Shown here piece by piece: positions 7,442-31,000 of a stretch of 64,000 bases of DNA; position 1 is the stretch's first letter; each line of letters begins with the position of its first letter. The notes beneath the pieces are model-generated. The model saw nothing but the letters and a program-made list of their open reading frames with translations. It was not told the origin of the DNA and ran no database searches. Source of the stretch: an uncultured Planctomycetota bacterium (GTDB lineage: Bacteria > Planctomycetota > Planctomycetia > Isosphaerales > Isosphaeraceae); the NCBI GenBank assembly GCA_963823665.1, contig CAWGMQ010000010.1, positions 2,048,001 to 2,112,000 on the forward strand, written 5' to 3'. A program made the translations under genes and the position numbers.

Positions 7442-7709
7442 CGGTGCTCCTTCACGGATTGGGGCAAGGCAAAAGTGGCCCACTGAAACCGGCAACGACT
7501 TTGGCGCAGCAACATAAAATGCTGGCGACGATCCAGGTGACGTGTTTATGCACGGTATTCGCGAATGGTATCTCCGACGATTGGGGTGACGCAATACGGC
7601 GGCGAAAAAGACGGTCGGGCTGCATAGAGATCATTTATTCACTTGGAGGTCCAACTCATATGGCGTGTTCGCCGCCACGGCAGGAAAAACCATCCAGAAA
7701 ACGCCAGCC

Positions 7710-8337
7710 TATGGAGACGCTCGAGGAGCTCAAGCGGCTGCGGACGATCCCGAAGGTCAAGCCGGCCGAGGCAGGCGGCAAAGTCGAGGCCACGATCCCC
7801 TTCCCGAGCGCCGGCCGCGACGTTTCGGCGGCCGACGTGGCGCAATCGCTCTTGACCGGCCGGTTCATGCCGAATGGGGACGGATCGAACGCTCCAGAGG
7901 TGGCTCAGGAAACGACTCCGCCAGCCGAAAGCGGTTCGGAAGTCATTTCCTCCTCGTCGCTGTCTCTGCCAGGGGGCGAGTCGCGGGGCAAATCGCGGCG
8001 CCAGGCGTACTGGCAGGGCGTGGCGCGGATCGGGCAGCAGGTGGCCGAGGCACTAGCGTACGCCCATGGCCAGGGAATCATACACCGCGACATCAAGCCG
8101 TCGAACCTGCTGCTCGACAACAAGGGGACGGTCTGGGTCGCCGACTTCGGCCTGGCGAAGGCCTCGGACCAGCAAGACCAGACGCATACGGGAGACCTCC
8201 TGGGCACGCTGCGCTACATGCCGCCGGAAGCCTTCGGCGGCAAGGCCGACGCCCGCGGTGATATTTATTCGCTTGGCCTGACGCTCTACGAGCTGCTCGC
8301 ATTCCGCCCGGCGTTCGACGAGGGGGACCGGGACCGA
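7710..8337 (+). pseudogene. Ser/Thr protein kinase fragment (subdomains VI-IX only)
   Basis: YWQGVARIGQQVAEALAYAH..IIHRDIKPSNLLL..DFGLAK..GTLRYMPPE..DIYSLGLTLYELL; no Gly-loop or VAIK; similarity ends abruptly after RPAFDEGDR. Confidence 0.8.
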
Positions 8338-9450
8338 AACGATCACGGGCCGGGCGGCGAGCGTGACGGTCGACGCCGGCGGGAACAGCCGGGTGTTCCA
8401 GGTCGATGCCATTGTCACCGCGTCGATCTCGGGGATGACGATCAGCGGAGGAAGCAACGCGTCTTACGGCGGGGGCCTGCTCAACAGCGGGCGGGGCACG
8501 ATCGGGATCACCGGTTGCACCGTCGGCGACAATTCCGCGAGCTCCGGCGGCGGGCTCTACAATAATGACGCCACGGCGAATCTGGATGCCACCACGATCG
8601 GCGGCAACTCCGCGGGCTCGGGCGGTGGAATTGACAAAATGGACGATGGCGGCGCCACGCTCGAAGACACGATCGTTGCCGCCAATACGGGGACAGGCGG
8701 CACGCCCACTGACATCGGCGGTGCCAGCGCTACGGGAGTCGTCGGCACGTATGATCTGGTGGGGACCGGCAGCGCCGGGGGAATCGCCGGCGGCACAGGC
8801 GACATTGTCCTCTCCAGCCTGAGCGGCTTGGGGCTTGCCTCGCTCGGCGACTACGGCGGTTCGTCCGAGACCATGCCCTTGCTACCCGCCAGCGCCGCGA
8901 TCGATACCGGCACCACGATCCCGGGGGTCTCAACCGACCAGCGCGGCCTCCCCCCTCAAGCTCGACGCCCGACATCTGTGCGTTCCAGAGCCAGGGATTC
9001 ACGTTCTCGGTCGTCGCCGGCAGCACCCCCCAGCTCGTGGCCACCGACGCCGAGTTTGCCAATCCGCTGGCGGTCATCGCCACTCCGATCAATCCCGTCG
9101 AGCCGGTGGCTGGCGGGGTCGTGACGTTCACCGTCAATCCGGGCCCGAACGGTGCCGGGGCCACCCTCTCCCCGGCGACTGCGATCATCGGATCAGCCGG
9201 AATTGCCGAGGTCACCGCCACGGCCAATTCCATCGACGGGCCTTACACGGTCACCGCAACGGCCGCGGGCGGCACGCCGACGATCGATTTCGATTTGAAG
9301 AACCTGATCAGGCTCACGTTCTCGGGAGTAACCAATCAGAGCATCACCTACGGCCCATCGAGCGAGACCCTTTCCGGCACGCTGGCCAACGGCACTCAAA
9401 ATGCCGATCAAGATCATCTACAGCGGCGATTCTGATTTCATGTCCAGCAC
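8336..9450 (+). pseudogene. fragment of a planctomycete beta-helix/Ig surface protein (choice-of-anchor Q-like), frameshift near 8955
   Basis: ETITG..VTVDAGGNSRVFQVD, GGGLYN/GGGID repeats, LGDYGGSSETMPLLPASAAID, DQRG..PDICAFQSQG, ITYG; lacks a proper N- and C-terminus. Confidence 0.7.
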
Positions 9451-9865
9451 GGCGACTCCGCCGGAGCTCGCGCGGTCGGGACTCAAGAGCCTGGCGCGGC
9501 CGATGATCGGGGAGACAGGGCACGCAGCGCAACGCCAACACTTTCGCGGTGGTCCGAAGATGTAGGCAGCCCTAACCCATTTCATTCTGGAACGGTTCGG
9601 ATCTCCCGACGGTGCCTGGGCCCGACGAATCCCCTCGAAGGATACCACCGCGCGCGGGAGAATTGCTACTTTCGGAATGCTGCGAATGGCTGGACCTGCC
9701 GCCAAAATCGCCTTCAAAATGGACCCGAAATACAGCCATATCTGAATGCTGGTGCTGGAGTAGGTCCTGGCCTGAGTGTGATGTCCCAAACATGCGCATT
9801 CGCTGAATTGTCGGAAATTTCATTTTTCCTGTCCTGCTTTCCTAGGTACGCGCTGGGTATAGTGT

Positions 9866-10174
9866 ATGGGTACCTTCTTGGCCAAGACGCCCCACGACCC
9901 GGTCGACCCGAACGAGCAGGTCAGCGGCGGCGACCGCAGGGCGCTGCCAACGCTCTTCGAGCAGCATCGCGAGCGGCCCCGGCGGTTGGTGGATCTGCGC
10001 CTGGACCCCCGGATTCGAGCCCGGCTCGACGGGTCGGAGCTCGTCCGGGATGCGTTCCTCGACGTCGCCCGCGAGCGCAACGAGCGACCGGAGTTGGTGT
10101 ACGCGCCGTTCGCGTTGGCTCGACATTGGCGAGGAAAGCCGCCGGACACAGGCCACTTGAGGATCACCGGCTGA
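9866..10174 (+). pseudogene. truncated planctomycete-type ECF sigma factor (region 2 only)
   Basis: GDRRALPTLFEQHRERPRRLVDLRLDPRIRARLDGSELVRDAFLDV matches the family N-terminus with substitutions; no region 4. Confidence 0.7.
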
Positions 10175-10193: not shown

Positions 10194-12605
10194 ATGATCG
10201 GCAACACGGTTCGCAACTATCGCATCGTCGCCAGGCTCGGCGCGGGCGGCATGGGGGAAGTGTTTCTCGCAGAAGACACACGGCTCGACCGGAAGGCGGC
10301 GATCAAGTTCTTGCCGGCCGAAGTGGCGAGCGACCCGGACCGTCGCCAGAGGTTCTTGACCGAGGCCAAAGCTGCTTCGGCGCTCAATCATCCGCACGTC
10401 TGCGTTGTGTACGACGTTGGGGAGACCGAAGATGGGCTGCCTTTCATCGCGATGGAGTTCGTGGAAGGGCTGACGCTCGGCGCGCTCGTGAACCAGGGAC
10501 GACCCGAGATCCCCACAGTCGTCCAGATCGCCGTCCAGGTCGCCGACGCGCTCGATGCCGCCCACTCCCGCCGGATCGTCCATCGTGACATCAAGCCCGA
10601 AAATATCAGCATCAATGAGCGCGGCGAGATCAAGGTCCTGGACTTCGGCCTGGCCAAGCGCATGTTCGAGGAATCCGCGGACTCGCTGGGAAAGACGGCC
10701 GACGCAGGGCAGACGCAGGACGGGCAGCTCCTCGGAACCCCCAGGTACATGAGCCCCGAGCAAGCGCTCGGCAAGGCCGTTGATCATCGCAGCGATCTCT
10801 TCAGTCTTGGCTCGGTCATCTACTTCCTGGTCACAGGCCGCCCGCCGTTTGCGGGGGCCAGCATGGGTGAAGTGCTGGACAACGTGGTCCACAAACAACC
10901 CGAGGCCCTGGCCCGTTTCAATTATGACGTCCCACCCGAGCTGGAACGGATCACGCTCAAGCTCCTGGCAAAACAGGTCGACCGCCGATACCAGTCGGCT
11001 CGCGATCTGCTTGTGGATCTCAAGAACCTGCACCGCGATTTCAATGACTCGCCGGCTCACCACCTGGCTGCGGCAACCCCGTCGATTCCGACACCGAAAG
11101 AGATCGCCGAGAGCGATATCGTCATCACCTACGCGAACCTGGATGACCGACCGGTCATGTCGGGGCGTCAGGGGTGGGTTTCGCAGCTCGAGCAAAACCT
11201 CCAGTTGCGCGTCGCGCAGCTTTCGGGTAAGCAGGTGGCCGTCGTCAAGCAGCCAGACGCGTCGGAGTCCGCCGACGTCGAATCGGCGATCCTCCAGCAG
11301 ATGCCGCAGGCCAAGACGGTCGTCTCGGTCCTCTCTCCCCCCTTCGCCCGGTCGAACGGGTGTCACCGGATGGTCGATACGTTCGCGAAGAGTACGCAGG
11401 CATCCGGGCGCTTCGAAGTCGGCAGTCGCTCGCGATTGTTGAATGTCATCAAGACGCCGGTGGACGCCGACGACTTGCCCCCCAACCTGCGTGCGCTTTA
11501 CACCGGTCTGGTACCCTACGAGTTCTTCGAGCGCGACCCGGTTTCGGGCCGGATGCGAGAATTCGACGAGGCGTTCGGAAGCACCGCTCTGCAACGCTTC
11601 CACGAGCGGGTTTATGACGTCGCCTACGACGTCTCCCAGGTGCTCAAATACCTGGGGGAAGGCCTCTCCGCTGGCGACAAGCGAACCGCGAATCCCAAGA
11701 CCATCTTTCTCGCCGCCACGACTTCGGACCTCGAACCGCAGCGCGATCAGTTGCGGCGCGAGCTGATCGAACTGGGGCACACGGTCGTCCCGAAGCAGCC
11801 GCTGCCCTTGGTTGCCAGCGAGCTGGTCGCGGTGGTGCAAAGTTGCCTCGTGCAGGCCGACGTCGCCATTCACTTCGTCGGTGAACACTTCGGACTCGTC
11901 CCCGAGGCGACTGATCTGTCGATGGTCGCTCTGCAGAACCAGGTGGCTGCCAGGTTCTGCGAGAACTCGTCGCTCAAGCGCCTGATCTGGATTCCCAAGG
12001 GACTAGTGCCCAGAGATGAGCGCCAGAGTTTGTTCATCCGTCAACTCGAGACCGATCCCCGCTCTGTCACCGGCGCCGAGCTGATCGCCGATACGCTCGA
12101 GAATCTCAAGGTGCTGTTACGCACCCGCTGGGAGCGAGAGCAGGCCGAGCGCGACAAGCCGGCACCAAAGCCGTCAGCCGGCGGCGCACCGCGCGTCTAC
12201 ATGATTTGCGACCAGAACGACGAGGCCGCACTCGAGCCGCTCGAAGACTTCTTCTACGCGCAGGGCATCGAGGTCAGCCTGCCGGGATTCGAGGCGGAAG
12301 AATCCGAGGTGCAGCAGATCCACATCCAGAACCTGCGCGATTGCGACGCGGCGCTCATTTATTACGGGGCAGCCGGCATGCATTGGGTGGACTTCAAGAT
12401 CCGGGACCTCCAAAAAGCGGCCGGCTATCGGGATTCGCGCCCCATACCAGTCAGCGCGGTCTATGTAGCACCTCCGTTCAATCACCGCAAGGAGCGCTTC
12501 AAGAGCGTCTCCACGGAAGTGATCCGGCAGGCGGAAGCCTCATTTGCCTCGGGATTACTCACGGAATTCGTCGCGGCCATCCGCCAGGCGAAGGAGGCCG
12601 TCTGA
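10194..12605 (+). CDS. Ser/Thr protein kinase fused to three TIR-like domains (TIR_2-like, DUF4062-like, TIR/SEFIR-like)
   Basis: Complete kinase (LGAGGMGEV, AIK, HRDIKPEN, DFGLAK, GTPRYMSPE); then DIVITYANLDD..WVSQL, TIFLAATTSDL..RDQLRREL..VGEHFG, RVYMICDQND..DCDAALIYYG. Confidence 0.88.
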   Translation: MIGNTVRNYRIVARLGAGGMGEVFLAEDTRLDRKAAIKFLPAEVASDPDRRQRFLTEAKAASALNHPHVCVVYDVGETEDGLPFIAMEFVEGLTLGALVNQGRPEIPTVVQIAVQVADALDAAHSRRIVHRDIKPENISINERGEIKVLDFGLAKRMFEESADSLGKTADAGQTQDGQLLGTPRYMSPEQALGKAVDHRSDLFSLGSVIYFLVTGRPPFAGASMGEVLDNVVHKQPEALARFNYDVPPELERITLKLLAKQVDRRYQSARDLLVDLKNLHRDFNDSPAHHLAAATPSIPTPKEIAESDIVITYANLDDRPVMSGRQGWVSQLEQNLQLRVAQLSGKQVAVVKQPDASESADVESAILQQMPQAKTVVSVLSPPFARSNGCHRMVDTFAKSTQASGRFEVGSRSRLLNVIKTPVDADDLPPNLRALYTGLVPYEFFERDPVSGRMREFDEAFGSTALQRFHERVYDVAYDVSQVLKYLGEGLSAGDKRTANPKTIFLAATTSDLEPQRDQLRRELIELGHTVVPKQPLPLVASELVAVVQSCLVQADVAIHFVGEHFGLVPEATDLSMVALQNQVAARFCENSSLKRLIWIPKGLVPRDERQSLFIRQLETDPRSVTGAELIADTLENLKVLLRTRWEREQAERDKPAPKPSAGGAPRVYMICDQNDEAALEPLEDFFYAQGIEVSLPGFEAEESEVQQIHIQNLRDCDAALIYYGAAGMHWVDFKIRDLQKAAGYRDSRPIPVSAVYVAPPFNHRKERFKSVSTEVIRQAEASFASGLLTEFVAAIRQAKEAV

Positions 12606-15600
12606 TGAAAACGGTTGACTCCCAGCCGGCCAATCCATTTCCCGGCCTTCGCCCGTTTCGCAGCGACGAGCACCATCTGTTCTTCGGCCGCGAGGAACAG
12701 ACCGCGGCGCTCTTGCAACTGCTGCGAACGAACCGATTCCTGGCGGTCGTCGGCACCTCGGGCAGCGGAAAGTCGTCGCTGGTGCGGGCCGGCATGATCG
12801 CCGAGCTTCACGGCGGCACCATGACCCGGGCCGGCTCGACCTGGGAGGTGATGATTCTCCGCCCCGGCGGCAGCCCCGTCGAGAATCTCGCGCGGGCGTT
12901 CGTCGAGTCCGATCTCTACGATCGGGAAGATCCCAGCACCCTGCCCCGGTTGCTTGCCACGCTCAACCGCAGCCGCTTCGGCCTGGTCGAAGCGATGAAA
13001 CAGTGCGAGCTGTTCGAACCGGGAACCAACCTGCTGGTCGTGGTCGATCAGTTCGAGGAACTGTTCCGTTTCCGGCAGCAGGGCGTCGATTCCGAGGAGA
13101 CGGCCGCCGCCTTCGTGAACCTGCTGTTGACTGCTAGCGAGCAGGCGGAATGGCCGATCTACGTGACCATCACGATGCGTTCCGACTATCTGGGTGACTG
13201 TTCCGAGATTCCCGGCCTGGCCGAAGCCGTGAACGATGGCGAGTACCTGATTCCCCGGCTGCTGCGCGATCAGAAGCGGGATGCGATCGAGAAGCCGATT
13301 GGCGTCGGCGGGGCGAATATCTCGCGGATGCTCGTGCAGCGACTCTTGAACGACGTGGGCGACGATCCCGATCAACTGCCGGTGCTGCAGCACGCGCTCA
13401 TGCGGATGTGGGATGCCTGGTCGACCGGCGGCGACGACGATCGGCCGATCGACTTCGCCGACTTCGAGGCGACCGGCGGCCTGGGGGCGGCGCTCTCCAA
13501 CCACGCCGATGAGATCTACGACTCGCTCCCTCACGACCGCCATCGGTCTGCCTGCGAGAAGATCTTCAAGACCCTCACCGAGAAGGGTGACGACAACCGC
13601 GGGATTCGCCGGCCGACGCGGCTGGTGCAACTCCAGGCCATTGCGGATTCCGCCCGCGACACGGTCACGACCGTGCTGGACGCCTTTCGCGGCTCGGGCG
13701 TGACGTTCCTGATGCCCGGCGCGGAGGTCCGCCTGGATGACCGAACGGTGATCGACCTGTCGCATGAGAGCCTGATGCGCGGCTGGCAACGGCTGCGGAT
13801 GTGGGTGGAGGACGAGGCGCAATCGGCGCGGATCTTCCGGCGGTTGCTGGACACGGCCCGGCTCTGGAGCGATGGGAAAGCCGGACTGTTCCGCGATCCC
13901 GATCTGCAGATCGCGCTCTCCTGGCGCGAGCAGGAGGCGCCCAATACCGATTGGGCCGAGCAATACGGCGGGCATTTCGAGACGGCGATCGGTTTTCTGG
14001 AGACCAGCAACGCGGACGCGGAGGCCGAACAGCAAGCCAAGGAAGCGGCCCGGCAGCGAGAACTGGAACAGGCGCGGCAGTTGGCCGAGGCCCAGCAACT
14101 GCGGCTGGAGCAGCAGCAGCGGGCGGCGCGCCGGCTACGCGTCATGATCGCCGGGCTCGCCGCGGTCGCGCTCGTTGCGGGCGCCGCCTGCGTCGTTGCG
14201 CTCTTCGCGAACCAGCGGGCGATCACGCTGGCGGCCGCGGCGCGGCATAACGAGGAGAGAGCCAGACAAAACGAAGAGAAGGCCAACCAGAACGCGACGC
14301 GAGCGGAGCAATCTCAGCAAGAGACGGCCAGCGCCCTCGCCCTCGTCGCGTCACAGAAGGCACAAGTCGAGGGAAGTCTGACCAAGGCCGAGACGGCCGA
14401 GCGGCTGGCGCGAGCCGCCGAGGAGGAGGGCCGGAAGCTACTCTACACGACCGATATGCGACTCGCCCCGTTTGTGTGGCGCGATGATCGGAGCACGGCG
14501 AATCAACTCCGCGATCTCTTGTCGAAACACATCCCCACCAGCATCTCGACCGTCGCCAAGCCCGATCTGCGCGGCTTCGAGTGGAACTACTACCAGCATT
14601 TACTCGAACATAACGCGGCGATTTTCTCGGGGCACGGCGTCTCCGTTGCCGGCGCTGCTTTCAGCTCGGGTGGTCGACTGGTTACCCTGGATCAGGAAGG
14701 CCAGGTAAGGCGATGGGAGCTGGATTCGCAGGACGAAGACACGGCAAATCGCCGCGACTTGCCCGGCGGCGCCACTGCTGGACTTCGCGTCTTATCTCCG
14801 AGCGGACGGCTGGCCGCGCTGGCTTCAGGCGATAAGATTCACGTATTTGACACGTCCACGGGCAAAGATACGTTTCAGATCGCTTCCGGCAATGTTTTTT
14901 ATCGCCGCCTGATTTTCTCGCGGGATGAAAAGAAGCTGGTCATTGTTGACGACAAGATTCGCTGGTGCGATGCCTCAAGCGGCGAGGTGATCGCATCCGT
15001 CGTCAATCAGGGGCTCACACAAGTAGCAAGTCTTGCCTTGTCCGCCGATGGTCTAACGCTGGCCGCGGTCGGCTACGCGCCCGGGGTTAACCCAGGATTC
15101 TTGATCCTTCGCCTGGACCCTACCACGCGCACAGTGACTTCGCTTGCAAAGGACCTCAAAGAGGAAGGTGAAGCATTGAATGCCTCCGCGCTCAGCCCCG
15201 ATGGCGAGCGGATTGCTGTAGGCTGTCAACTCAACGGATCGTTATTCGTTTGCGACACGGCCACAGGCCGCTCGATTGCGAGATTTGGGTCCGCGCACGC
15301 GTCGCCTATCTCGGCGATTGCCTTCTCAGGCGACGGCACGAAGCTGGCCACGGCCGATGTGGAAGGGACAATCAAGATCTGGGCCGACGCTCAGAAGCTC
15401 ACTTCGAAGAGCACAGCGCTCTGGACGCTCAAGGGTCATCAAGGCACGATCACAAGTGTCAACTTTTCGAGCGATGGCAAACGACTTGCAAGTGGTAGCG
15501 CGGACAAAACGGCCAGAGTCTGGGACCTGGAAAATGCCGGCGCGGCCATCCGGTCATTGGAACATTCCCGTGGTGATTGCTGGGTGGCGCGCTTTTCGGC

Positions 15601-18600
15601 TGATGGCCAGTTGATTGCCGCCGCCGACGGCAACCGCGTTCGTCTGTGGGACGCCGCCACGGGGCGACTCGTGCGGGACCTGTCGGCCGGCGACACGAGC
15701 CGGGTCTTCAGCGTGGCATTCTCGCCCACCGACAGCAACCTGCTGGCCACGGGACATGGTGGACAAGCGAATCTATCGTATGTCTCTCTGTGGGACATCC
15801 ATACCGGAACGGAAATAGCTCGGTTGCCGGGAGCGACCGACCTGCCCGGCTTCAAGGTTGCCGAAGAAAACGGGCCGGTCGGCGCGCTGGCATTTTCGCC
15901 CGACGGGAAATATCTGGTCGCCGGTTTCGGCTCAAAGTGGCTTCTATCGGCGGATAGTTCTCCCACTCCGCTGAAGGTCTGGGAGGTCGCCACGCGCCGC
16001 CTGATCCGCCGCCTTAATGGACACACCGGCTTCTGCGTTTCTCTCGACTTCTCCAACGATGGAAAGCTGCTAGCCAGCGGCAGCCGAGACGGAACGGCGA
16101 TCATCTGGTCAGCCCGGACCTGGAAGAGCACGCTGACGCTGCTGGATCCAGATCAGCGCTTGTCATTCGGCCGAGCTGGGCGGGGCATGGTCGATGATGT
16201 GGCGTTTTCGCCGGACGGCAAGATTCTAGCCCTGGCCAGCCGTGGGGGGAACGTCCAGTTGTGGGACGTCGCCTCCGGAAAACTTCTGCAAGCGCTCAAG
16301 GGACATTCCAACGCCGTCCAAGCCGTGGCGTTTTCGCCGGACGGTCGCACGCTGGCGTCGGGCGGCAGCGATCAAACGGTCCGCCTGTGGAATGTTGCGA
16401 CGCGGCGCGAACTGATGCAATTGGGTCAGGGCGGCATCGAGCTGGGTAATGTGACAACACTCGCGTTTTCGCCCGACGGCGAGCGATTGTTGACGGGAGG
16501 GGAGCACAGCACGCCTGCCTTCTGGTCCGCCGCGCCGATCGTGTGGAACGATCCAGGCCGCGCCGCCCTGAAACTGCGACTTCTGCTGAATTCGAACGCC
16601 GACTTCCCGAGCCGCATCCGGATGCTGTCCGAAAACCTGAGGCTGCACGAAGCGCTGGCGAAGCTCGACGCGAAGGATCGGCGCGTGCAGGCCGCGCTCG
16701 CCGCCACGCAGGCCAACTGGCACGCCTCGCGTCATGAATGGGCTCTGGCCGTTCGTGCCTTTGATCGGCTGGCGGCCGCCGACCCGTCGTCCCCGCCCGA
16801 CGCCTGGCTCCGTACGCCCGGACTGCTTCGTCTGGCGACGGCCCTCGCGCATCAGAATCGGCCTGCCGTGGCGGCCAAGCTATTGCAGGGAGGCGCGAAA
16901 CGCCGTAGCCAGGATGGGCTACCCACCGCCGCTCTACAGGTGGGAGTCGGCATTGCGTATGAAGAGGAGGAGTTGCATTCCCTTCGGGCGGCCGTCAATG
17001 AACGGCTCGCCGAACAGCCGCGAAACGCCGGACTTCTCGAACTGCGCGCCGAACTTGCGGGCCAGTGGTCGGATGCCAGGGCCCAGTTGGCCGACTACAC
17101 CGCCGCCATCGATGCCCTTTCGCCGCTGAAAGCCGAGGCCACAGCGGCCGATCTCGAGCGGCTGTACGGCCGCCGCGGCAACGCCCACGTCGCTCTGGAG
17201 CAGTGGCAAAAGGCCGTCGACGATTACGCTCGGGCCGTGGTTGACGCGACAACCGATGAAACTCTGCTATCCAACCAGGCGCTGGCACTTTCCGAGACGC
17301 TCCTTTCCTCCAAGCGATGGACCGTGATGAAACCGACCGAGATGAAATCAGCGCTGGGAGCGACTCTGGCATTGCAGGAGGACGGCTCCGCCTCGGTAAG
17401 TGGGAAGCTCCTGACCAAAGAGACCTACACGCTGGAATTCGAGGGCATTCCCAGGAAGATTCGAGCCATTCGCCTCGAGGCGCTCCGCGATGACCGGCTT
17501 CCGAACAGTGGGCCGGGGACGCATTGGTCCGGGAATTTTATCCTCAGTCATCTCGCGGTGTTCAGACCGGACGAAAGAGGTCCGGCAGCAACAAAGGAGG
17601 TCCCGCTGCGAGCCGTGTTTGCCACGTTCGAGGAACGCCGTGCCGAAACGTCCGTATCGAAAAAGGACCAGGATGCGGGCTGGAGCGTATCCCCCGCAAC
17701 GGGTAAGTCGCACAGCGCCATTTTCGCGATCGATCCCTACCAGGATAGAGTCGGCGCCGATCGACTCCGGATTGTGCTGGATTTTCGCCACTCTGACTCG
17801 ACCCCCGCGCTCCTCGGGCGGTTTCGTTTTTCGGTCTCTTCGGATGATCCAAAGGTCATCGCCAGTGAAGCAAGCACGCAACTGCGAGCGACGAACCTCA
17901 CCGATCCCTGGACAAAACTGGCCGCGGCTTACCGGCTCGCTGGCGATCAGCAGGCGATCGACGATCTGGTCGCGCGACGACCTCAAGCAGCGGGCGGCGT
18001 CGGCGACCTTTTCGCCGCGGACAGCGCCTGGGCCCGCGCGGTGGAAATCTACAGCCGGGGCCGCACGGCGAAGACGAACGACGCCCTATTGCTCTCGAAG
18101 CGGGCTCGCGCCTATGAGGCGCTCAAGAACTGGGAGGCCGCGGCAGCCGACTGGTCGCGGGCCGCGAGCGGGAATCCGGACGGGCCGCGGCTGCTCGCCG
18201 AGTTCGCAAGTCGACTTGCGGCCGGCGGCCCGGTTCCCTTGGCGAACGGTCAGTTCGAAAGGTCGCGAGCACTTTTCGAGGAGTCACTGCAAGCGGACCC
18301 TGGGAATGACCCGGTCGCTACGGAGCTGGCTCAACTTCTCCTGGACAAGCTCAGGCCCACGAAGCCGGATTGGGTCGTTCTCAGACCAGCCGAAACGAAG
18401 ACCGAAAATGGGACGTCGCTGACGTTGCAGGATGATGGATCGATTCTTGTTGCGGAGACGCCACCAGAGGTCGTCCGCTGGCAACCCGGTCCCACGCCGG
18501 TTCAGGCGCTGCGCATCGAGACCAGCACCCGTGCGGTCACACCCACCAACGGCGCCCCGCTATTCAACGAGTACCAGATCGTCGCGGCGAGCATGGCGGC

Positions 18601-21600
18601 TTCCGGATCCGGTGCCATACGGGGCCGGTTCGTGCGACTCGACCTGCCCGGGGACAGCAGTCGGTTTCCCAGGCACCCGGCGGAGCCCGATAAGAAAGTG
18701 ATCAACCTGGCCGAGTTGCAGGTGTTTCAAGGCGGTCAGAATATCGCCCTGGGGAAAAAGGCTCGGCAGTCGTCCATCTGGAGTGGGAGCGAGAGTCGAT
18801 TCCGGCCGGGAGGCGCCGTGGATGGCAATACGGTCGGTGATGATGATGGCAATCCCTACGCTCATACCGCGGAAAACGATCCGTGGTGGGAAGTCGATCT
18901 TGGCAGCGAAGAGGCGATCGAACGGATGGTTGTCTGGAATCGATCCGATGCCATCTTGTACTCACGCATGAATCATTTTCGTATCCGGGTGCTGGATCGC
19001 TCGCGAAAAGTTGTCTTCGAACGGGTCATCGAAAGGGCGCCGAGCCCTTCGAGAGAGATCGTCCCCCCGAAGCTTCTAGCGGAAGCGAACGCCGCGCTCA
19101 CCGGGGGAAATCAGCCGTTGATCGTGCGTTTGCCATTGAACCCGCACGAGGACGCGCCATCCCGCTTCCGCGTTTCGGTGGCTGACCGCCTTGTTGACTT
19201 GAGCCGGGAGGAAGAACGCGAGGAACGAGCGCAGCCGGGGTGGGCGGTGCTCAAACCGGCGGAATCGAAAACCCAACGTGGATCGAAGCTGACATTAGAC
19301 GAGGATGGATCGATTCTTGTTGATAGGAAACCAGAGACGGTTCGCTGGCAGCCCGGTCCCAGGCCGGTTCAGGCCCTGCGCATCGAGACCAGCAGCCGTG
19401 CATTCGCCCCCACCACCGGCGCCCCGCTTTTCAACGAGTACCAGGTCGTCGCGGCGAGCACGGCTGCTTCCGGATCCGGGGCCATACGGGGCCAGTTCGT
19501 GCGACTCGACCTGCCCGGGGACAGCAGTCAGTTTCCACGGCTCGCGAGCGATCTCGACAAAAAAGCGATCAACCTGGCCGAGTTGCAGGTTTTTCAAGGC
19601 GATCAGAACATCTCGCTGCGCAAGAAGGCTCGGCTGTCCAGCGACCTTGGCAATGAGCAGGTGGCCGAACTCGCCGTGGATGGAAATACGGCCGGTGACC
19701 AACCCCACATTGCCCATTCGGGATTCGAGAGTGCGCCCTGGTGGGAAGTGGACCTCGGGAGCGAACAGTCGATCGATCGGATGGTTGTCTGGAATCGACC
19801 CGACTGGGGGCTCTACAAACGCATGAGCCATTTTCGGGTCCGAGTGCTGGATCACTCACGAAGACTGGTCTTCGAGCAGGTCGTCGAACAAGCTCCGGCC
19901 CCTTCGGCAGAGATCGTTCCTCGGGCGTTGCCGGCGGAAGCGCTTCCCGCGCCGACCGGAGAAAACCAGCCGTTGATCCTGCGGTTGCCATCCCAGCCGG
20001 ACAACGACGCTCCGGCCCGCTTTCGCGTTTCAGTCGCCGCTCGGCTCCCTGATGTGGACCTGGATGAAAACCGCGAGGAGGCCATGAAAATTAACGACGT
20101 CGCGACGCGTCTGGCGGTCGCTTACGCGATGAACGGTCGCAATGACGAGGCGTCGCAGTACTTTGGCCGGGCACTCCAGCAGGCCGACGGTTATGAGGCA
20201 AGGACGCCGATCGTCGAATTCGCATCGCGTTTTGACGACGTGCTTTCCGCCTTGATCAAACAACAGCCTGAGGTTTCGCAATTGCAGTTGGCTTGGGCAC
20301 GACGTCTTGCGGAGCGGGGCAAGCAGCGTCTGGCCGAGAAGCAAGCGGCGAAAGCACTGACTGAGTTGGACGAATCCCGCAAGATTTTCACGCGGCTGCG
20401 CGGAAATGCCTTGGAAGGTGCCCACCCCGGTCGAGATGAAGACCGAAAACGGGTCCAAGCTGGAATTGCAGGAAGATGGCTCCGTTTTCGTTCACCAGCC
20501 CGCGAAGCGAGACACCTACACGCTCGTCTTCCGGACCGAACTGAAGGGCATCAAGGGCCTGCGTCTGGAAGCCCTGGCCGATTCCCGCCTGCCAAACGGC
20601 GGACCGGGGTGCTGGAACGATGGGAACTTCGTGCTCAGCGAACTGTCGCTGCACGCGGCCTCCGCCAAGAGCCACGACCAGCCAAGGCCCATCGTCTTAC
20701 GAAACGCGTGGGCGGATTTTAGCCAAGAAGGTTTCAACGTGCGTGGAACAGTGGATGGCAAAGGGTTGGGTTGGGCCATCGCGCCGGCATTTGCCAAAGA
20801 TCACATGGCAGTCTTTCAAGTAGCCGAGGAACTTGGCGACGGCCAGACCCTTCGACTCACGGTCCGGCTTAACCACAAGTTTCACTACGAGAAACACTTG
20901 CTTGGCCGCTTCCGCTTGTCGTTTACCAACGATGCGAATGCGACAACGTTGCAAGCGGCGCGAATTCGGCCGGATCTGAAAGACAGCGAGGTGGCGGACC
21001 TCTGCGTCGCCCTTGGAAAGGCCCATGCCCAGCTAGGTGGTAGCAGCGAGGCTGCTGCTTCCTTCGCCGAGGCTATTTCTCTGGCTGCCGACCGCGCCGG
21101 CAGAGCCAGGATCATTGAGGAGGCCGTGCCGCTCGAAGGTGTACTGGCCAAACTTGCGGACGGTGCGGCGGGCGATGGACGGTTCCAGGCCGAGCTGGCC
21201 CGACATTTCGCCGAACACGGCGATGCGCCAAGGGCGGACGCTTCGCGCACCAGAGCCCGCGCGGCGCTTGAAGAAAGCCTTGCCAAGGAGCCTGAGAGTT
21301 CCGCGGTGGTCGCGGAACTGAGCGACGTCCTGTTGCTGAACACCGCCGCCTGGACCGTTCTGAAACCGACTGCGCTGAAATCGGAAGGCGGGGCCGCCCT
21401 GACGCTCCAGCCGGATGGTTCTGTTCTGGCGAGCGGCGTCAACCCGGCCAAGGACGTATACGTCGTCAAGGCGGAGTTTCAGGGACCGATCGGGGCAATC
21501 CGACTCGAAGCTATCCCCGACTCAAGCATGCCAGGAGCCGGCTCTGGGCGGTATGGGAACGGGAACTTCATGCTCACCGATTTCCGGGTCCTGGCAGGGG

Positions 21601-23822
21601 AAAACGTGGTCACCTGGAGGCAAGCATCCGCCGATTTCAGCCAGGAGAATTCCTCGGGGAACTTTCGAATTGACTTGGCCATTGACGCGGACAAATCGAC
21701 CGGCTGGGCGATCTTTCCTGAGGTCGCCGAGCGCCACCGCGCGGTGTTCATCCCCAGCCGGCCGATCACCGCGGCCAGCGAGACCCATCTCACCATACGG
21801 CTGGCGTTTCAGAGCAAGCACTCGCATCATGCGCTGGGCCGGTTCCGGCTCTCGGTCAGTGAAGACGCGGCCGCTTTTGAAAGGGAAAGGAAACGCTTCG
21901 CCCTCGTGAACGTTGTCGACCCCTGGGCAAGACTGGCCGCCGCGTACGCGGTGAACGATCGCGACGATCTCGCGTCGCGATACTTTAGCAGAGCACTCGA
22001 GCGCGCCCACGCCTACGAGGCGAGGAAGCCGATCGTCGAGGCCGCTGCGCGTTTCGACGAGGTCCTCTCCGCCCTGATCGAACGGCAGCCCGAAGATCCG
22101 CAATTGCAGTTGGCACTGGCTCGGAAACTCGCGGAGCGGGGCAAGCAGCGTTTGGCGGAGAAGCAGCCCGCGCAGGCACAAGCCGCGTTGAAGAAGGCGC
22201 GGGAGATCCTCACACGGCTCCGCGTGGAGCCGCAGTGGACCGTGCTGACCCCGGTCGAGATGAAAACCGATAACGGCTCCAAGCTGGAATTGCAGGAAGA
22301 TGGTTCCGTCTTCGTTCACCAACCCGCCAATAACGACACCTACTCGCTCGTGTTCCAGACCGAGTTGAAGGGGATCAAGGGCCTGCGCCTGGATGCGCTG
22401 GCCGATCCCCGCCTGCCAGGCGGCGGACCGGGGTGGGCGCCCGATGGAGGCTTCGTGCTTAACGAACTATCACTGGCTGCGGCCCCTGCAAACAGCCCCG
22501 AGCAGCCGAGGCCCTTGGCCATACGAAACGCGTCGGCGGATTTTAACCAAGCGGGTTACAACGTCGGTAAAGCAGTGGACGGCGTCAGCGAGCCTTTCGG
22601 GGGTTGGGCTATCGCCCCCCAAGCCAACAAAGATCACGCAGCGGTCTTCGAGACGGCCGAGGAAATCGGTAACGGCAAGGCCACTCGGTTTACGGTCCGG
22701 CTCGACCACCTGTTTCACATGGAGAAACGCTTACTCGGCCGCTTCCGATTGTCCTTCACCAACGACGCGGCCACGTTGCAAGCCACGCGTATTCGATGGG
22801 ATCTGAAAGACAGCGAACTCCTGGACCTGAACGTCGCGCTGGCAGAGGCTTGTGCCCAACAAGGTCAAACCGATGTCGCCGTCGCCTCCTTCGCTGAGGC
22901 GCTCGCTCTGGCCAAGGACCGCGCCGGCAAAGCGAAGGTCATTGGGGAGGCCGCCCCGCTGGCAGGCGTGCTCGAAAAGCTGGCCGAGCGCGCAGCGGGC
23001 GACGCGCGGTTCCAGGCCGAGCTGGCCCGACATTTTGCGGAACGAGGCAATGCCCAGGCCGCGGACGCGGCACGCGCGCGAGCGTGCATATTGTTCGCCG
23101 AGAAGCTGGCGCAGGAGCCGGAGAACTCCGCGCTCGCCGCGGACCTCCTCTCGGCGTACCAGTCGGCCGGCCGCACGCGTGAGGCGGTCCTATTTCTGGC
23201 GAAGGCGTCCGCCGCCGATCCGAAGGACACAATGCTCTCCTTGAAGGTCGCCGCTCTCCAGGCGTGGTTCGGGCAGGAGAAGGAACTTGCCGCCACCCGG
23301 CAGCGAATCCTGGCGTCAGCCAAGGGCACCGCCGAATCGATCACGGCGGAACGCGCGGCCATGGCGTGCAGCATCCTTCCCTCCACCGACAAGGCAGAGA
23401 TCGAAGCGGCGCTGGCGCTCGGTCGCTCGGCGGTGAAGCTGGGTAACGGCGTGGAGTGGTGGAACCTGCTGGCCCTCGGCATGTCGGAGTGCCGTGGCGG
23501 CAACCACGCTGCCGCCGAGAAGGCCCTGCTCGCCGCGGTGGAATCCGTCAAGAACAGTCCGCTCGACGCCCCCGGCGTGACGGGCGCGTCATCCTTCTTC
23601 CGCGCGATGAGCCTGTTCCTACTCGGCAAGAAGTATGAAGCTCGCAAGCTCGCGATTGCGGCCGCGGCGAAGATGAAGCCCCTGCCGGCCGACGAGCGGA
23701 ACCCTCTGGCCGGCGATGAAACCGAGAACGACCTGATCGTGTGGCTGGCTTACAAGGAAGCGAAGGCCATGATCAGGTTCGACCCACTCCCAGCGGCCGC
23801 GGATCAACCCAAAGCGAAATGA
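12605..23822 (+). CDS. giant nSTAND1 NTPase-WD40-TPR-lectin-like repeat protein (~3,740 aa), split by a 2-nt deletion at ~20402
   Basis: NPFPGLRPF..FFGRE..VVGTSGSGKSSLVRAG, VVVDQFEELF, TMRSDY, LPVLQHAL, SHESL; hydrophobic helix; many GH..WD repeats; TPR-like helices; discoidin-like repeats. ATG overlaps the kinase stop (TGATG). Internal repeat offset changes from 1822 to 1824 across the break. Confidence 0.88.
18370..20070 (+). repeat. intragenic tandem duplication (~870 nt x2) of a discoidin/F-lectin-containing module
   Basis: Two copies of W.VL.PAE.KT..VRWQPGP.PVQALRIETS..G.FVRLDLPGDSS..INLAELQVFQG..PWWEVDLGSE. Confidence 0.85.
20095..23130 (+). repeat. intragenic duplication (~1.2 kb units at ~20095-21300 and ~21920-23130)
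   Basis: Near-identical LAERGKQRLAEKQ..TPVEMKT.NGSKLELQEDGSVFVHQPA..RFQAELARHFAE blocks, offset 1822-1824 nt. Confidence 0.85.
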
Positions 23823-28022: not shown

Positions 28023-31000
28023 TCATTGCCCATCGCTGTAATCTTTGACGGCGGGCATCAGTCCATGCTCGAACAAGCTGTCGATCGCTGCGGCGGTTGG
28101 AGCTTCGATGGCGGCGGCGCTCGCGGTGGGCGAAATGACAAGCCCGGTATTGGCCACCGTGGCTGTGAAATCCTTGCCGTTGTTGATCGGTCGTCCCAGC
28201 GGGTCGGTCAGAAGCGAAACGTTGACCAGCAACTGCTCGAACTTGGGCAGGCGGTGCTTGCCCCGGGGGAGGAGGATGACGCTGTCGCTCGAGGGGTTGT
28301 AGATCGCCTGGGTGAGCGGCACGAGCTTGTTATAGATGATTCGCGAAACCTTGTGAACCTTCTTTTTCTTGCCCGAGAAGACGGTGTAGGCCGCGAGATT
28401 CTGAGCCGCGGTGGCGTCCAAGGCACCGCTGAACTGGACGAAGAGCACCAGCGCTCTCTGCTTGTGGAATTTCCTGCCGAGCTTGACCTTCTCGACCTTT
28501 AATGCCGTGATCGTCACGGGCGACGTTGGCGCTTGCGTAACGGCGATCGTCGTCGTGGCTCCCGTGGTCGTGTAATCGGCCGCGTCGGCCGGCCTGAAGA
28601 GCACCGACAAAGGCTGATTCTGGCCTACGGGCAAGATCGTGCCCGCCGCCGGAGTGTAGACGAAGGTGCCCGCCACCCCTGCCGTGGCGTCGAGCTGCGC
28701 CGACCCCAGGGGCGTGCCGGACGTGATGCCGCCAGGCGTGGCCCACGTGACCGTCGGTGTCGCCTTCTTGACCGTCAGCGTCGCCGAGCTGCTGGCGGAC
28801 ATGAAATCCGCATTGCCCACGACGCTGTAGGAAATCGTGTAGGGCGAACCAGCAGCGCCAAGCGAGGCCGTGTTGAATTTCGCGGAGAAGTCGCCGGTCG
28901 TGGTGTCGATCGGGACGGTCGCGGTGACGCCAGCGAGGGTGATCGAGACATTCCCGGAGGGGATCTTCGACCCTGGGGCGACGATCTGGCCCGAGAGCGT
29001 GACGCTCGGGGTGCCGTAGCTGATCGTCGGCACGGAGAGCACGCTGAAGGCCGGCTGCGCCGCGACGACGTTGATCGTCACTGAGTCAGGAGCCGTGGTG
29101 TAGTCGGCCGAATCGGTTGGGGTGAATAGCACCGACAGGGTCTGTCCCTGGCCTACATTCGGTACCGTTCCCACAGCCGGTGAATAGGCGAAGGCGCCGC
29201 CCACCGAGGCCGTGGCGTCGAGCTGCGTCGACCCCAGCGACGTGCCATACGCGATGTCGGCGGGCGTGGCCCATGTAACGGCCGGCGTGGCCTTGTTGAC
29301 CGTCAGCATCGTGGTGCTGCCCGCGGCGGCGAAGTCTGCGTTGCCCGCGAAGCTGTAGGAGATGGTGTAGGGCGAAGCGGCCACGCCAAGCGCGGCCGTG
29401 TTGAAGTTCGCGGAGAAGTCGCCGGTCGAAGTGTCGATCGGGGCGGTCTCGGTGACGCCATCGAGGGTGATCGAGACATCGCCCGAAGGAATGAGCGACC
29501 CTGGGGCGGCGATCTGGCCCGAGAGGTTGACGCTCGCCGTGCCGTAGGTGATCGTGGGCGCGGACAGGACGCTGAAGGCCGGCTGTGCCGGGGTGACGTT
29601 GATCGTCACTGAGTCAGGAGCCGTGGTGTAGTCGGCCGAGTCGGTCGGGGTGAATAGAACCGACAAGGTCTGTCCCTGGCCTCCATTCGGTACCGTTCCC
29701 ACCGCCGGTGAATAGACGAACGTGCCCGCCACCGAGGCCGTGGCGTCGAGCTGCGCTGACCCCAGGGCCGTGCCATACGTGATGCCGGCGGGCGTGGCCC
29801 ACGTGACGGCCGGCGTGGCCTGGGTGACCGTCAGCGTCGCGGTGCTGCTGGAGGCGGTGAAGTTTGCGTCGCCGGCGAAGTTGTAGGAGATGGTGTAGGG
29901 CGAAGCAGCCACGCCAAGTGCGGCCGTGTTGAAGTTCGCGGAGAAGTCGCCGGTCGAGGGGTCGATCGCGGCGGTCGCGGTAACGCCGTCGAGCGTGATC
30001 GTGACATCGCCGGAAGGGATGGTTGAGCCTGGGCCGGCGATCTCGCCCGAGAGGGTGACGCTCGCTGTGCCGTAGGTGATGAAGGGCACAGACAGTCGAC
30101 TCCAGGTAGGCGTGGGCCCCGTCTTCACCGTCGCGGTTACCGACGCCGACTCGTTCGGCTGAGTCAGCGAATTTACCTGCACGGTGACGGTCCCTTGGCC
30201 GACGCTCGAGAGGCTTATCTCGAGCATGATCGCGCCGGTCGAAAATCCCGGCAGGATGAAAGTCGGGATCGTCTGGGTCGGCAGTCCGTCGAGGCCCATC
30301 AAGGTGGCGGTCACCGGGCCTGTCGTTCCCATGATGGTCGCCGCATAGGAGTCCTGGCTGTTGCCCGTGTTGTTGACCAGCAGGATGAACGAGGACGAGC
30401 CCGGGACAGGCACGACCTGGACGCTCGGGTTGAACTGGGCCGTCAGTCCTTCGGTCGACGGGATGCTGAGCGTAGCGGTGGCGGCCGCTCCGACGGCGGG
30501 ATTGGTCTGCGATGTGGCCATTGCGGTCAGGGCCAGGCCGCCCGGATCGGCGAAGTTCACGGCCGACGTGGTGATCGAGACCATTTGCGACGCACCCGGC
30601 GCCAGCGTCACCTGTGACACGGCGAGAGTCGAAACGACTGCGGCCGGCCCGGTCAGCGCCAGGGTATAGGTGTCTGACGCCGTACCGGTGTTGGTCACGG
30701 TCATCTGGAAGGTTGTGCCCGGAGCGGCCGAGCCCGGGTCGAGCGACACGCTGACGCCGTTGGCCGCGACCGTGAGCGTGCCCTGAGTCGTGGCCGTTGC
30801 CGCAGAGCTGGTGGTGGAAACAGCAGTGACCGTGAATGGGTAATCCGCGGCGGCGGTGCCGGGCGCCGGCGTGAGCGTCAAGGTCACGTCGCGGAAGTTG
30901 CTCTGGCCGGGGGGTGCAGTGATCGTCGCGGGGGAGAAGCTCGCCGCGATGCCGGCAGGCAGGCCCATGACAGCCAGATTGTAGGTGTCGGTCGCGTTGC

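Follow-up and report, generated by a model that had tools for sequence, protein, structure and literature searches.

A stretch of planctomycete DNA raises the question of whether a STAND NTPase that carries no effector of its own might act through a protein kinase encoded by the adjoining gene, and whether such a pair would belong to an immune system or to a signaling pathway. The stretch, hereafter the window, comprises 64,000 nucleotides of contig CAWGMQ010000010.1 from an uncultured member of the Isosphaeraceae (assembly GCA_963823665.1, positions 2,048,001 to 2,112,000), and positions below are those of the window unless a contig or locus is named. Gene 1 encodes a serine/threonine kinase fused to three TIR-fold domains, and gene 2 a very large protein with an nSTAND1 domain and a long repeat region. 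An earlier note on this DNA had proposed that the repeat region drives a STAND switch which recruits the kinase in trans through TIR-like adaptors. We find that the pair is real, conserved and mechanistically testable, in a layout that is catalogued yet unstudied, and that it resembles a signaling relay more closely than a proven immune weapon. We give somewhat better than even chances to the reading that the two products form a single-pass STAND receptor clustering a pre-docked kinase via catalytically dead TIR adaptors.

Domain architecture of the two genes

The two genes comprise the following features:

10194..12605, + strand: gene 1, Hanks-type Ser/Thr kinase and three TIR-fold domains, 803 residues (open reading frame and profile search)
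10218..10994, + strand: kinase domain, catalytic motifs intact (PF00069, residues 9-267, E 3.8e-43)
11097..11654, + strand: domain 1, FxsC-N-like with a true TIR fold; methionine in place of the NADase glutamate, other pocket motifs lost (structure and motif table)
11694..12155, + strand: domain 2, DUF4062/NIR-like, glutamine in place of the catalytic glutamate (PF13271, hhalign)
12183..12602, + strand: domain 3, TIR-like flavodoxin fold, lysine at the presumed glutamate position, predicted nSTAND1 docking domain (structure, complex model)
12605..20722, + strand: gene 2, first frame, with nSTAND1, coiled coil, transmembrane helix, stalk, WD40 propellers, TPRs and beta-sandwiches; the final ~110 codons are out of frame
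12635..13876, + strand: nSTAND1 NTPase without N-terminal effector (PF20703)
14141..14203, + strand: predicted single transmembrane helix with basic residues before it (hydropathy 2.59)
14612..16534, + strand: WD40 beta-propeller region, downstream of the LRGFEW stalk motif at 14567 (PF00400, 207 bits)
16535..20383, + strand: TPR-like helices, three beta-sandwich starts that share a single unnamed type and two F5/8-like PF22633 domains (profiles, internal repeats)
20406..23822, + strand: gene 2, second frame, with three further beta-sandwiches alternating with TPR-like helices (open reading frame)

The kinase of gene 1 is intact, as the earlier note had stated, and retains the glycine loop and the HRDIKPEN and DFG motifs. 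All 112 full-length close homologues have DFG, and 110 of the 112 have HRDxKPxN. An AlphaFold2 model of the last 506 residues, built from 88 sequences, resolves three alpha/beta domains with a predicted local distance difference test score (pLDDT) of 93.7. We compared this model with known structures using VIA-align, because the Foldseek matches were mainly spurious multi-domain ones, with the SARM1 TIR only at rank 13. Domain 1 superimposes on the RPS4 TIR with a Z-score of 13.5 (root-mean-square deviation 2.8 over 143 residues) and domain 3 on TIR-STING with a Z-score of 12.0, which bears out the predicted TIR-fold nature of the C-terminal region. At the level of profiles, DUF4062 (PF13271) scores above its cut-off (residues 504-579; 29.3 against 24.7 bits) and TIR_2 matches weakly at residues 327-399; in the homologues P0126, P0128 and P0132 TIR_2 matches fall within domain 3. 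Domain 1 also scores 22 bits with the FxsC-type TIR model NF040588 (cut-off 130), the FxsC C-terminal model has no match in gene 1 at E 0.01, and profile searches recovered no ParA-like match in gene 1 or gene 2. A sequence search of PDB with domain 3 alone returned nothing meaningful. Domains 2 and 3 align with each other at an hhalign probability of only 3.9, and a recent internal duplication is therefore not demonstrated.

The TGA stop codon of gene 1 (12603-12605) overlaps the ATG of gene 2 at 12605, the TGATG coupling that had been reported for this pair. The nSTAND1 domain of gene 2 is unequivocal (PF20703; 321.4 bits against a cut-off of 27.1, E 1.6e-95), with intact Walker A (GTSGSGKSS, 12752) and Walker B (DQFEE, 13046) motifs, and since the match begins at residue 11 there is, as predicted, no effector N-terminal to it. 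Profiles, hydropathy and motif searches likewise recover the single hydrophobic helix (residues ~513-533, mean hydropathy 2.59), the LRGFEW motif (residue 655) and the WD40 and TPR regions. The sugar-binding-like repeats fared less evenly: eight beta-sandwich repeats alternate with TPR-like helices, and the attribution stands for the two that belong to the galactose-binding-like PF22633 family, while the remaining six lack profile support and give weak fold matches in a low-confidence model. A single-sequence model of the ectodomain has a pLDDT of 46, and its matches to carbohydrate-binding modules (Z 7.0-7.6) lie within the range of chance. An Atlas search with the ectodomain recovered unnamed clusters of the Planctomycetes-Verrucomicrobia-Chlamydiae group, with leads to PSCyt2/F5-8 proteins that were all sub-0.9. 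The region to 23822 had been taken as one open reading frame; the frame from 12605 in fact stops at 20722.

Conservation of the gene pair

Searches with the TIR part recovered 834 relatives with E-values up to 1e-30 (clusters at 50% identity). Among the best 150, 87 are 465-535 residues long and 45 have 580 residues or more; the latter include 19 with an N-terminal kinase, six with a cyclase and four with a ParA-like domain (three via NF047398, and P0224), in addition to single CHAT, EAD1 and nSTAND1 fusions. The kinase fusion is a minority form of a module that, judging from these relatives, is usually a stand-alone TIR enzyme. At least 119 further proteins are close homologues of gene 1 with 76-91% identity over the TIR part, one of them, at 87%, named as from an Isosphaeraceae bacterium. 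Some relatives within the TIR-module set share further layouts: P0277 and P0287 carry both kinase and cyclase, and P0148, P0153, P0185, P0197, P0198 and P0211 have four TIR-fold domains, the DUF4062-like one being duplicated.

The linkage to nSTAND1 extends well beyond the kinase fusions. When genome contigs were scanned with the stand-alone forms, 585 stretches were confirmed, and the analysis covers the best 80 of them; these come from Acidobacteriota, Bacteroidota, cyanobacteria, betaproteobacteria and others and mostly lack the kinase. In 77 of them an nSTAND1 gene lies directly downstream of the TIR module, and the other three stop at contig ends. Close relatives furnished 22 metagenome loci (21 with a profile match, three at a contig end), and the nSTAND1 start is at most 554 nucleotides away in 16 of the 18 that are informative. 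In the host family the module is present in 15 of 120 other genomes, with nSTAND1 adjacent in 16 of 17 fetched loci; in the reverse direction, all seven loci fetched via nSTAND1 have a TIR gene upstream. The co-location anticipated by the earlier note is hence recovered in each of these surveys. A phylum-wide sample has the module in 4 of 401 genomes, so its distribution is patchy. Strict translational coupling does not hold as a general rule, several relatives having 380-1500 nucleotides between the genes. Separate kinase-TIR and nSTAND1 genes occur in relatives as well, and conversely P0221 and P0300 join the TIR module and nSTAND1 in one chain.

The gene junction also appears to be an insertion hotspot for small genes (L131, L132, L143, L144, L149, L188, L189, L194, L197 and L033:9800-11300), the same 97-residue gene being found at the junction in L131, L188, L189 and L033. 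By eye, the inserts look like genes for four-helix-bundle proteins, GxxExxY proteins and pairs of an antitoxin with a PIN-domain protein. In L038 and L039 other small genes overlap the starts of effector-less nSTAND1 genes. In L191 (G445:C4) the kinase-TIR gene is directly followed by a WD40 fragment, nSTAND1 and the stalk being missing through deletion or misassembly.

Loss of the NADase residues

All three TIR-fold domains of gene 1 lack the NADase glutamate, as would be expected of an adaptor. For domain 1, the family profile lines up with the WCxxE motif found in plant TIR NADases. Across 138 representatives that cover this domain the glutamate is kept by 85 of 86 stand-alone proteins, 5 of 6 cyclase fusions, 4 of 4 ParA fusions and 8 of 19 kinase fusions; in the close homologues it is absent from all 120, including the present protein, which has a methionine. 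The loss extends to the surrounding His, Trp, Asp and Tyr motifs, which are missing even from most of the kinase fusions that keep the glutamate.

Domain 2 aligns with canonical DUF4062 without gaps (hhalign probability 91.5) and has a glutamine, found in 141 of 150 representatives, where the KpSwz structure carries the glutamate changed in its E97A variant. DUF4062/NIR domains require this glutamate (10.64898/2026.05.01.722283; 10.64898/2026.09.04.749371), and changing it to glutamine abolishes NIR domain activity (10.64898/2026.09.04.749371). Domain 3 has a lysine at the presumed glutamate position in 101 of 150 representatives. The sister proteins L141 and L142 (69% identical), which bear a cyclase instead of the kinase, lack the glutamate as well.

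Predicted docking of the TIR part on nSTAND1

We predicted a complex of residues 1-468 of the nSTAND1 protein with the TIR part, alongside three controls. The model scored 0.74 and the best control 0.00; of 157 solved complexes 116 come up to the score mark applied, as do 2 of 215 mismatched pairs, figures that are only approximate with the alignments used here. At least 95% of the contacts are shared between runs, and the partner has a pLDDT of at least 83. The predicted interface consists of domain 3 (residues 376-451 of P0002) and the end of domain 2, leaving domain 1 free. Alignment columns in the interface are more conserved than the rest for domain 3 (0.74 versus 0.60) and scarcely so for domain 2 (0.62 versus 0.61). 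A sequence search of PDB found no solved nSTAND1 structure beyond matches at the level of the Walker A motif. The complex model, a check that the earlier note had suggested, supports binding of the TIR part to nSTAND1. The wider proposal of TIR-like adaptors acting in trans gains from the lost catalytic residues, the co-location and this model; it needs amendment in that fusion to a kinase is the less common form.

A probable membrane-spanning receptor and the outer-membrane barrel genes of its relatives

The hydrophobic helix of gene 2 has counterparts at residues 473-516 in 65 of 70 partner proteins of the TIR module; three of the five without it are truncated by contig ends, and two full-length ones fall below the threshold. 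This pattern points to a conserved transmembrane segment, and the WD40/TPR sensor of gene 2 would therefore probably face the periplasm. The C-terminal parts of the 62 complete partners carry WD40 repeats (32), TPRs (25), a coiled coil (2) or nothing assignable (3). F5/8-type domains are typical of extracytoplasmic proteins. The likeness to Avs and NLR proteins, on which the earlier note had drawn, stands for a STAND NTPase with a repeat sensor and would probably break down at the predicted transmembrane helix and the periplasmic position of that sensor.

The gene neighborhoods of the relatives offer a second line of evidence. An outer-membrane barrel gene lies in the flank of 53 of the 80 mostly kinase-less loci, four of the 53 on the opposite strand, which points to trans-envelope sensing. 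The type of barrel follows that of the receptor: 24 are TonB-dependent receptors beside WD40 receptors, and 29 are PF13557-like beside TPR receptors. We take the PF13557 family to be an outer-membrane channel. Examples of such barrels are L047:14633-17374 and L104:11454-15359, and in L104 the barrel is fused to the receptor. Of 97 neighboring open reading frames scanned, seven are SLATT/DUF4231 genes and five are cyclase genes. This pairing of barrel type and receptor type is absent from the literature searched.

A proposed clustered-kinase relay and its alternatives

On this basis we propose the following mechanism. The nSTAND1 ATP switch of gene 2 would lie in the cytoplasm and its WD40-TPR-beta-sandwich sensor beyond the inner membrane, with the gene 1 product pre-docked on the switch via domain 3 and the end of domain 2. 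On meeting a putative periplasmic ligand, which judged from the F5/8 domains might be a glycan or otherwise envelope-related, the sensor would signal through the coiled coil to nSTAND1, leading to nucleotide exchange and oligomerization. The oligomer would cluster the attached kinases, allowing their mutual activation and the phosphorylation of cytoplasmic targets, an ECF (extracytoplasmic function) sigma factor being the obvious candidate substrate. Kinase-activated ECF sigma factors are known or predicted, planctomycetes included (PMC8999054), and planctomycete kinases that carry the same WD40/TPR modules are predicted to expose them to the periplasm (PMC11032199). The module would have arisen from a wider family whose domain 1 is an intact TIR NADase; in the present clade that enzyme would have decayed, the output now being a kinase or, in the sisters, a cyclase. 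The architecture, linkage, residue loss and intact kinase and Walker motifs are observed and the docking is modeled; the membrane topology, the oligomerization, the nature of the ligand and the activation and targets of the kinase we infer. The proposal lends itself to direct testing, since the docking model points to specific residues on either protein and the two cytoplasmic parts have a size suited to expression.

Several observations weigh against this relay. The fold assignment of domain 3 is not exclusive, in that receiver domains match it at Z 10-11, near the 12.0 of TIR-STING. As to docking, the predicted contact 34-410 is an Asp-Arg pair in 62 of 72 paired rows and all nine rows without the Asp also lack the Arg, but this covariation gives no independent support because the rows are kin and were input to the complex model. 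The association of residue loss with the kinase is also uneven: eight kinase fusions retain the domain 1 glutamate, a second kinase-fused clade of the same family (L193-L199, L249) retains it, 13 of the 17 losses fall in one 21-row clade and four elsewhere (tree of domains 2-3, 132 rows), and an independent-pairs test of kinase fusion against loss is not significant (5 pairs, median p 1). The membrane topology of gene 2 is deduced from a hydropathy scan and context. No barrel gene was found in the window, in the 43 further loci that the barrel search covered or among the seven fetched via nSTAND1, which leaves the kinase-fused loci fetched without one, although flanks there often end soon after the long receptor gene; the barrel argument is therefore carried over from relatives. 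The ECF gene next to gene 1 is dead, reduced to a remnant, and just one fetched locus (L127) has an intact PF07638-type ECF gene directly upstream of the kinase-TIR gene. Finally, gene 2 is frame-broken as assembled.

A bolder version, which we hold tentatively and at well below even chances, would see a bacterial Toll-like relay with an NLR switch at its base. NAD cleavage by a TIR enzyme docked on a trans-envelope STAND receptor, the ancestral output, would in this clade have given way to a phosphorylation (or cyclic-nucleotide) relay, the three TIR folds serving purely as scaffold, the dead active-site face of domain 3 as docking surface, and the ectodomains being swapped with the planctomycete kinase-WD40 repertoire, all for defense against phages or predators sensed outside the cytoplasm. 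If true, it would be a prokaryotic case of the transition of a TIR enzyme to an adaptor.

It is unlikely that the pair is an immune suicide system in which phage or predator sensing makes the kinase a toxic effector that stops growth by abortive infection. The nSTAND1 domain was defined in predicted counter-invader systems (PMC8195603) and DUF4062/NIR domains are anti-phage NADases (10.64898/2026.05.01.722283; 10.64898/2026.09.04.749371). Moreover, stand-alone relatives have an intact TIR, the ectodomains are highly variable, the distribution is patchy (16 of 121 family genomes including the host, against the sparse phylum-wide count), and SLATT/DUF4231 proteins are encoded by seven of the 97 adjoining open reading frames scanned. 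Against this, all three NADase sites of gene 1 are degenerate; no PADLOC model matches the TIR part, the PADLOC matches of gene 1 being generic kinase ones; the commonest neighbors of the relatives are outer-membrane barrels rather than defense genes; and the neighboring genes in the window encode histidine kinases, Ig-repeat proteins and transport functions.

We regard as improbable the view that the helix is no membrane span, or that the chain re-enters, such that the WD40/TPR region would sense in the cytoplasm in the manner of soluble Avs or fungal NLR proteins with an effector in trans. Characterized STAND receptors do sense there (10.1101/2023.09.22.558884; 10.64898/2026.09.04.749371), some entries for this operon in the 2021 source table (PMC8195603) carry no transmembrane label, and the two full-length partners mentioned above have no helix above the threshold. 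The strength and constant place of the helix in most partners, the basic residues that precede it in gene 2, the barrel partners and barrel fusion of the relatives and the extracytoplasmic habit of F5/8-type domains all argue for a membrane-spanning receptor instead.

State and origin of this copy

Two further features bear on whether the locus is functional:

20385..20405, + strand: break in the frame of gene 2, best explained as an assembly error (coding signal changes frame)
9866..10174, + strand: decayed planctomycete-type ECF sigma remnant, N-terminal part only (TIGR02984)

Beyond the break, the G+C content at third codon positions is 0.44 in the old frame and 0.80 in the new one, and read across both frames the gene 2 protein would have ~3,740 residues, comparable to the open frame of 3818 residues in one relative. 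The break is likely an assembly error because relatives read through it (L135 and L249 have a single frame at the equivalent place) and rpoB (G000:C3:1630335-1633986; L153, L154) is also frame-broken in the same 16.5 Mb assembly. In a check of three housekeeping families, rpoB was broken, DNA polymerase III alpha had one whole and one split copy, and carbamoyl-phosphate synthase was whole; given the state of rpoB, a broken frame in this assembly is no ground for calling a gene a pseudogene unless sequencing reads bear it out. Of seven sequencing runs, which contained at most a tenth of the sequence words and of which none is recorded as RNA, four were mapped, and neither these nor public contigs extend over the break in gene 2. 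The ECF remnant that the earlier note had placed upstream of gene 1 is recovered by the planctomycete-specific model TIGR02984, well under its cut-off (positions 3-54 of 189, E 9.1e-8, 31.9 bits against 183.75). Similar remnants, differently broken, lie upstream of the relatives L188, L189 and L193, and by eye of L190. A conserved short protein with sigma region 2 alone was considered and rejected, the remnants breaking at different places. A second copy of the system on contig C4 (G000:C4:2143000-2175000; L033, L034) has most of the kinase and the first TIR domain deleted and several breaks, and a direct kinase-transmembrane-WD40 gene with a closely related ectodomain adjoins it.

These features raise the prospect of a decaying copy, with a real frame break and a dead ECF gene, in an eroding kinase/WD40 paralogue. 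The break near 20390, the broken kinase at 7444-8565, the ECF remnant and the loss in the C4 copy would fit it; the break in the essential rpoB, the open frames and intact motifs throughout gene 1 and over the initial 7.8 kb of gene 2, and the close homologues at 76-91% identity make it very improbable. The least probable of all is that the TIR-like domains still bind or process a nucleotide by chemistry that needs no glutamate, or else sense a nucleotide and thereby gate the kinase: the constancy of the domain 2 glutamine and domain 3 lysine exceeds what decay would need, but the domain 3 residues lie in the predicted protein interface, the Glu-to-Gln change inactivates NIR domains (10.64898/2026.09.04.749371) and domain 1 has lost its other pocket motifs.

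The gene 1 kinase is at most 47% identical to the 149 other places scored in this genome (of 623 candidates), and on this ground we reject a derivation from the local pool of ECF-linked kinases. With most of the kinases in kinase-TIR loci from other genomes it shares 52-87% identity, and 43% with that of L250. For the stalk that follows the helix, 150 of 498 candidates in the genome were scored, and just two other loci matched, namely the broken second copy and the kinase-transmembrane-WD40 fusion beside it on C4, with 61-73% identity over stalk and WD40 region. In L193 a kinase that is 86% identical is joined to a TIR part that is 44% identical. The simplest reading of these comparisons is a mosaic, in which a kinase-TIR/nSTAND1 core would have taken over the ectodomain and site of a resident ECF-kinase-WD40 locus. 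The derivation from such a locus envisaged by the earlier note would then hold for the ectodomain and the ECF remnant, and not for the kinase.

Elsewhere in the window, a kinase fragment at 7444-9506, upstream of the ECF remnant, runs into a choice-of-anchor Q/surface-protein fragment and is chimeric or broken. On the minus strand, four or five abutting long open reading frames at 28023-41103 encode transglutaminase-like and many Ig-like domains, and probably represent a single giant surface protein whose gene is interrupted by frame errors. Across the genome (G000) there are 37 matches to the nSTAND1 profile, and Hanks kinases number at least 150.

Comparison with known systems

Kaur et al. 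2021 (PMC8195603) named nSTAND1, and the source data for their Figure 2 tabulate for several planctomycetes an operon that agrees with genes 1 and 2 in domain order and gene order. Other rows list the kinase-less form 'TIR+DrHyd(+TIR) -> nSTAND1+TM' in Acidobacteria and others. In the passages covered, their main text mentions nSTAND1 once, for nSTAND1-FGS systems, does not discuss the operon, and says nothing of catalytic residues being lost, of docking or of a barrel partner; 'TonB' occurs 0 times in the source file. With the layout in a public table since 2021, its surprise is therefore limited. Our literature searches found no paper discussing the kinase-TIR/nSTAND1 pair, with the figures and supplements of preprints, which may show the architecture, outside their scope. 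The lost glutamates in all three domains, the docking model and the barrel-gene association are new in this analysis. In related work, nSTAND1 proteins are among the targets of diversity-generating retroelements (10.1101/2023.09.22.558884); see also PMC7159879.

In the bacterial STAND receptors that have been studied, sensing is cytoplasmic and a fused enzyme does the killing. The present family appears to sense across the membrane, and its output, be it a TIR NADase, a kinase, a cyclase or ParA, apparently resides on a second protein that can be exchanged. Its kinase clade is a natural experiment for the change from TIR enzyme to adaptor. Among Avs and NLR-like proteins, PsAvs2 with its N-terminal NIR (DUF4062) NADase (10.64898/2026.09.04.749371) has in common with our pair the STAND switch, the C-terminal repeat sensor and a TIR-fold/NIR domain on the output side. 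PsAvs2 is, however, one soluble chain with an active NADase, whereas genes 1 and 2 encode two chains with a predicted membrane span, dead TIR/NIR sites and a kinase; the N-terminal effector of the Avs type has no counterpart on the STAND chain of gene 2, the effector-side domains being on gene 1.

In gene organization the pair resembles the TIR-FC/ParA systems (FxsC/FxsT; 10.64898/2026.10.19.760177), which have an upstream gene with an active TIR beside inactive ones and a downstream STAND (nSTAND1 among them) or single-pass receptor gene. Domain 1 is FxsC-N-like below the cut-off of the model, and four of the 45 long relatives carry a ParA-like domain; our locus differs in having no ParA, an inactive first TIR and an attached kinase. 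With the planctomycete kinase-transmembrane-WD40/TPR receptors (PMC11032199, whose supplement text has no DUF4062 or TIR_2 entry in the part covered) and the kinase-activated ECF systems (ECF43 EcfP/PknT and predicted planctomycete groups; PMC8999054) the pair shares the stalk and WD40 region related to the C4 fusion and the ECF remnant. It differs from these receptors in having its kinase on one chain and its sensor on another, with a STAND switch and a TIR scaffold interposed, in a kinase that is no close paralogue of the others scored in the genome and in the lack of an intact adjacent ECF gene.

In eukaryotes, the Toll-like receptor/MyD88/IRAK pathway combines an extracytoplasmic repeat sensor, a non-enzymatic TIR adaptor and a Ser/Thr kinase output achieved through clustering. 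The likeness of our pair to this pathway is one of analogy: here the cytoplasmic part of the receptor is a STAND ATPase, there are no death domains, and the predicted docking is of TIR to STAND rather than of TIR to TIR.

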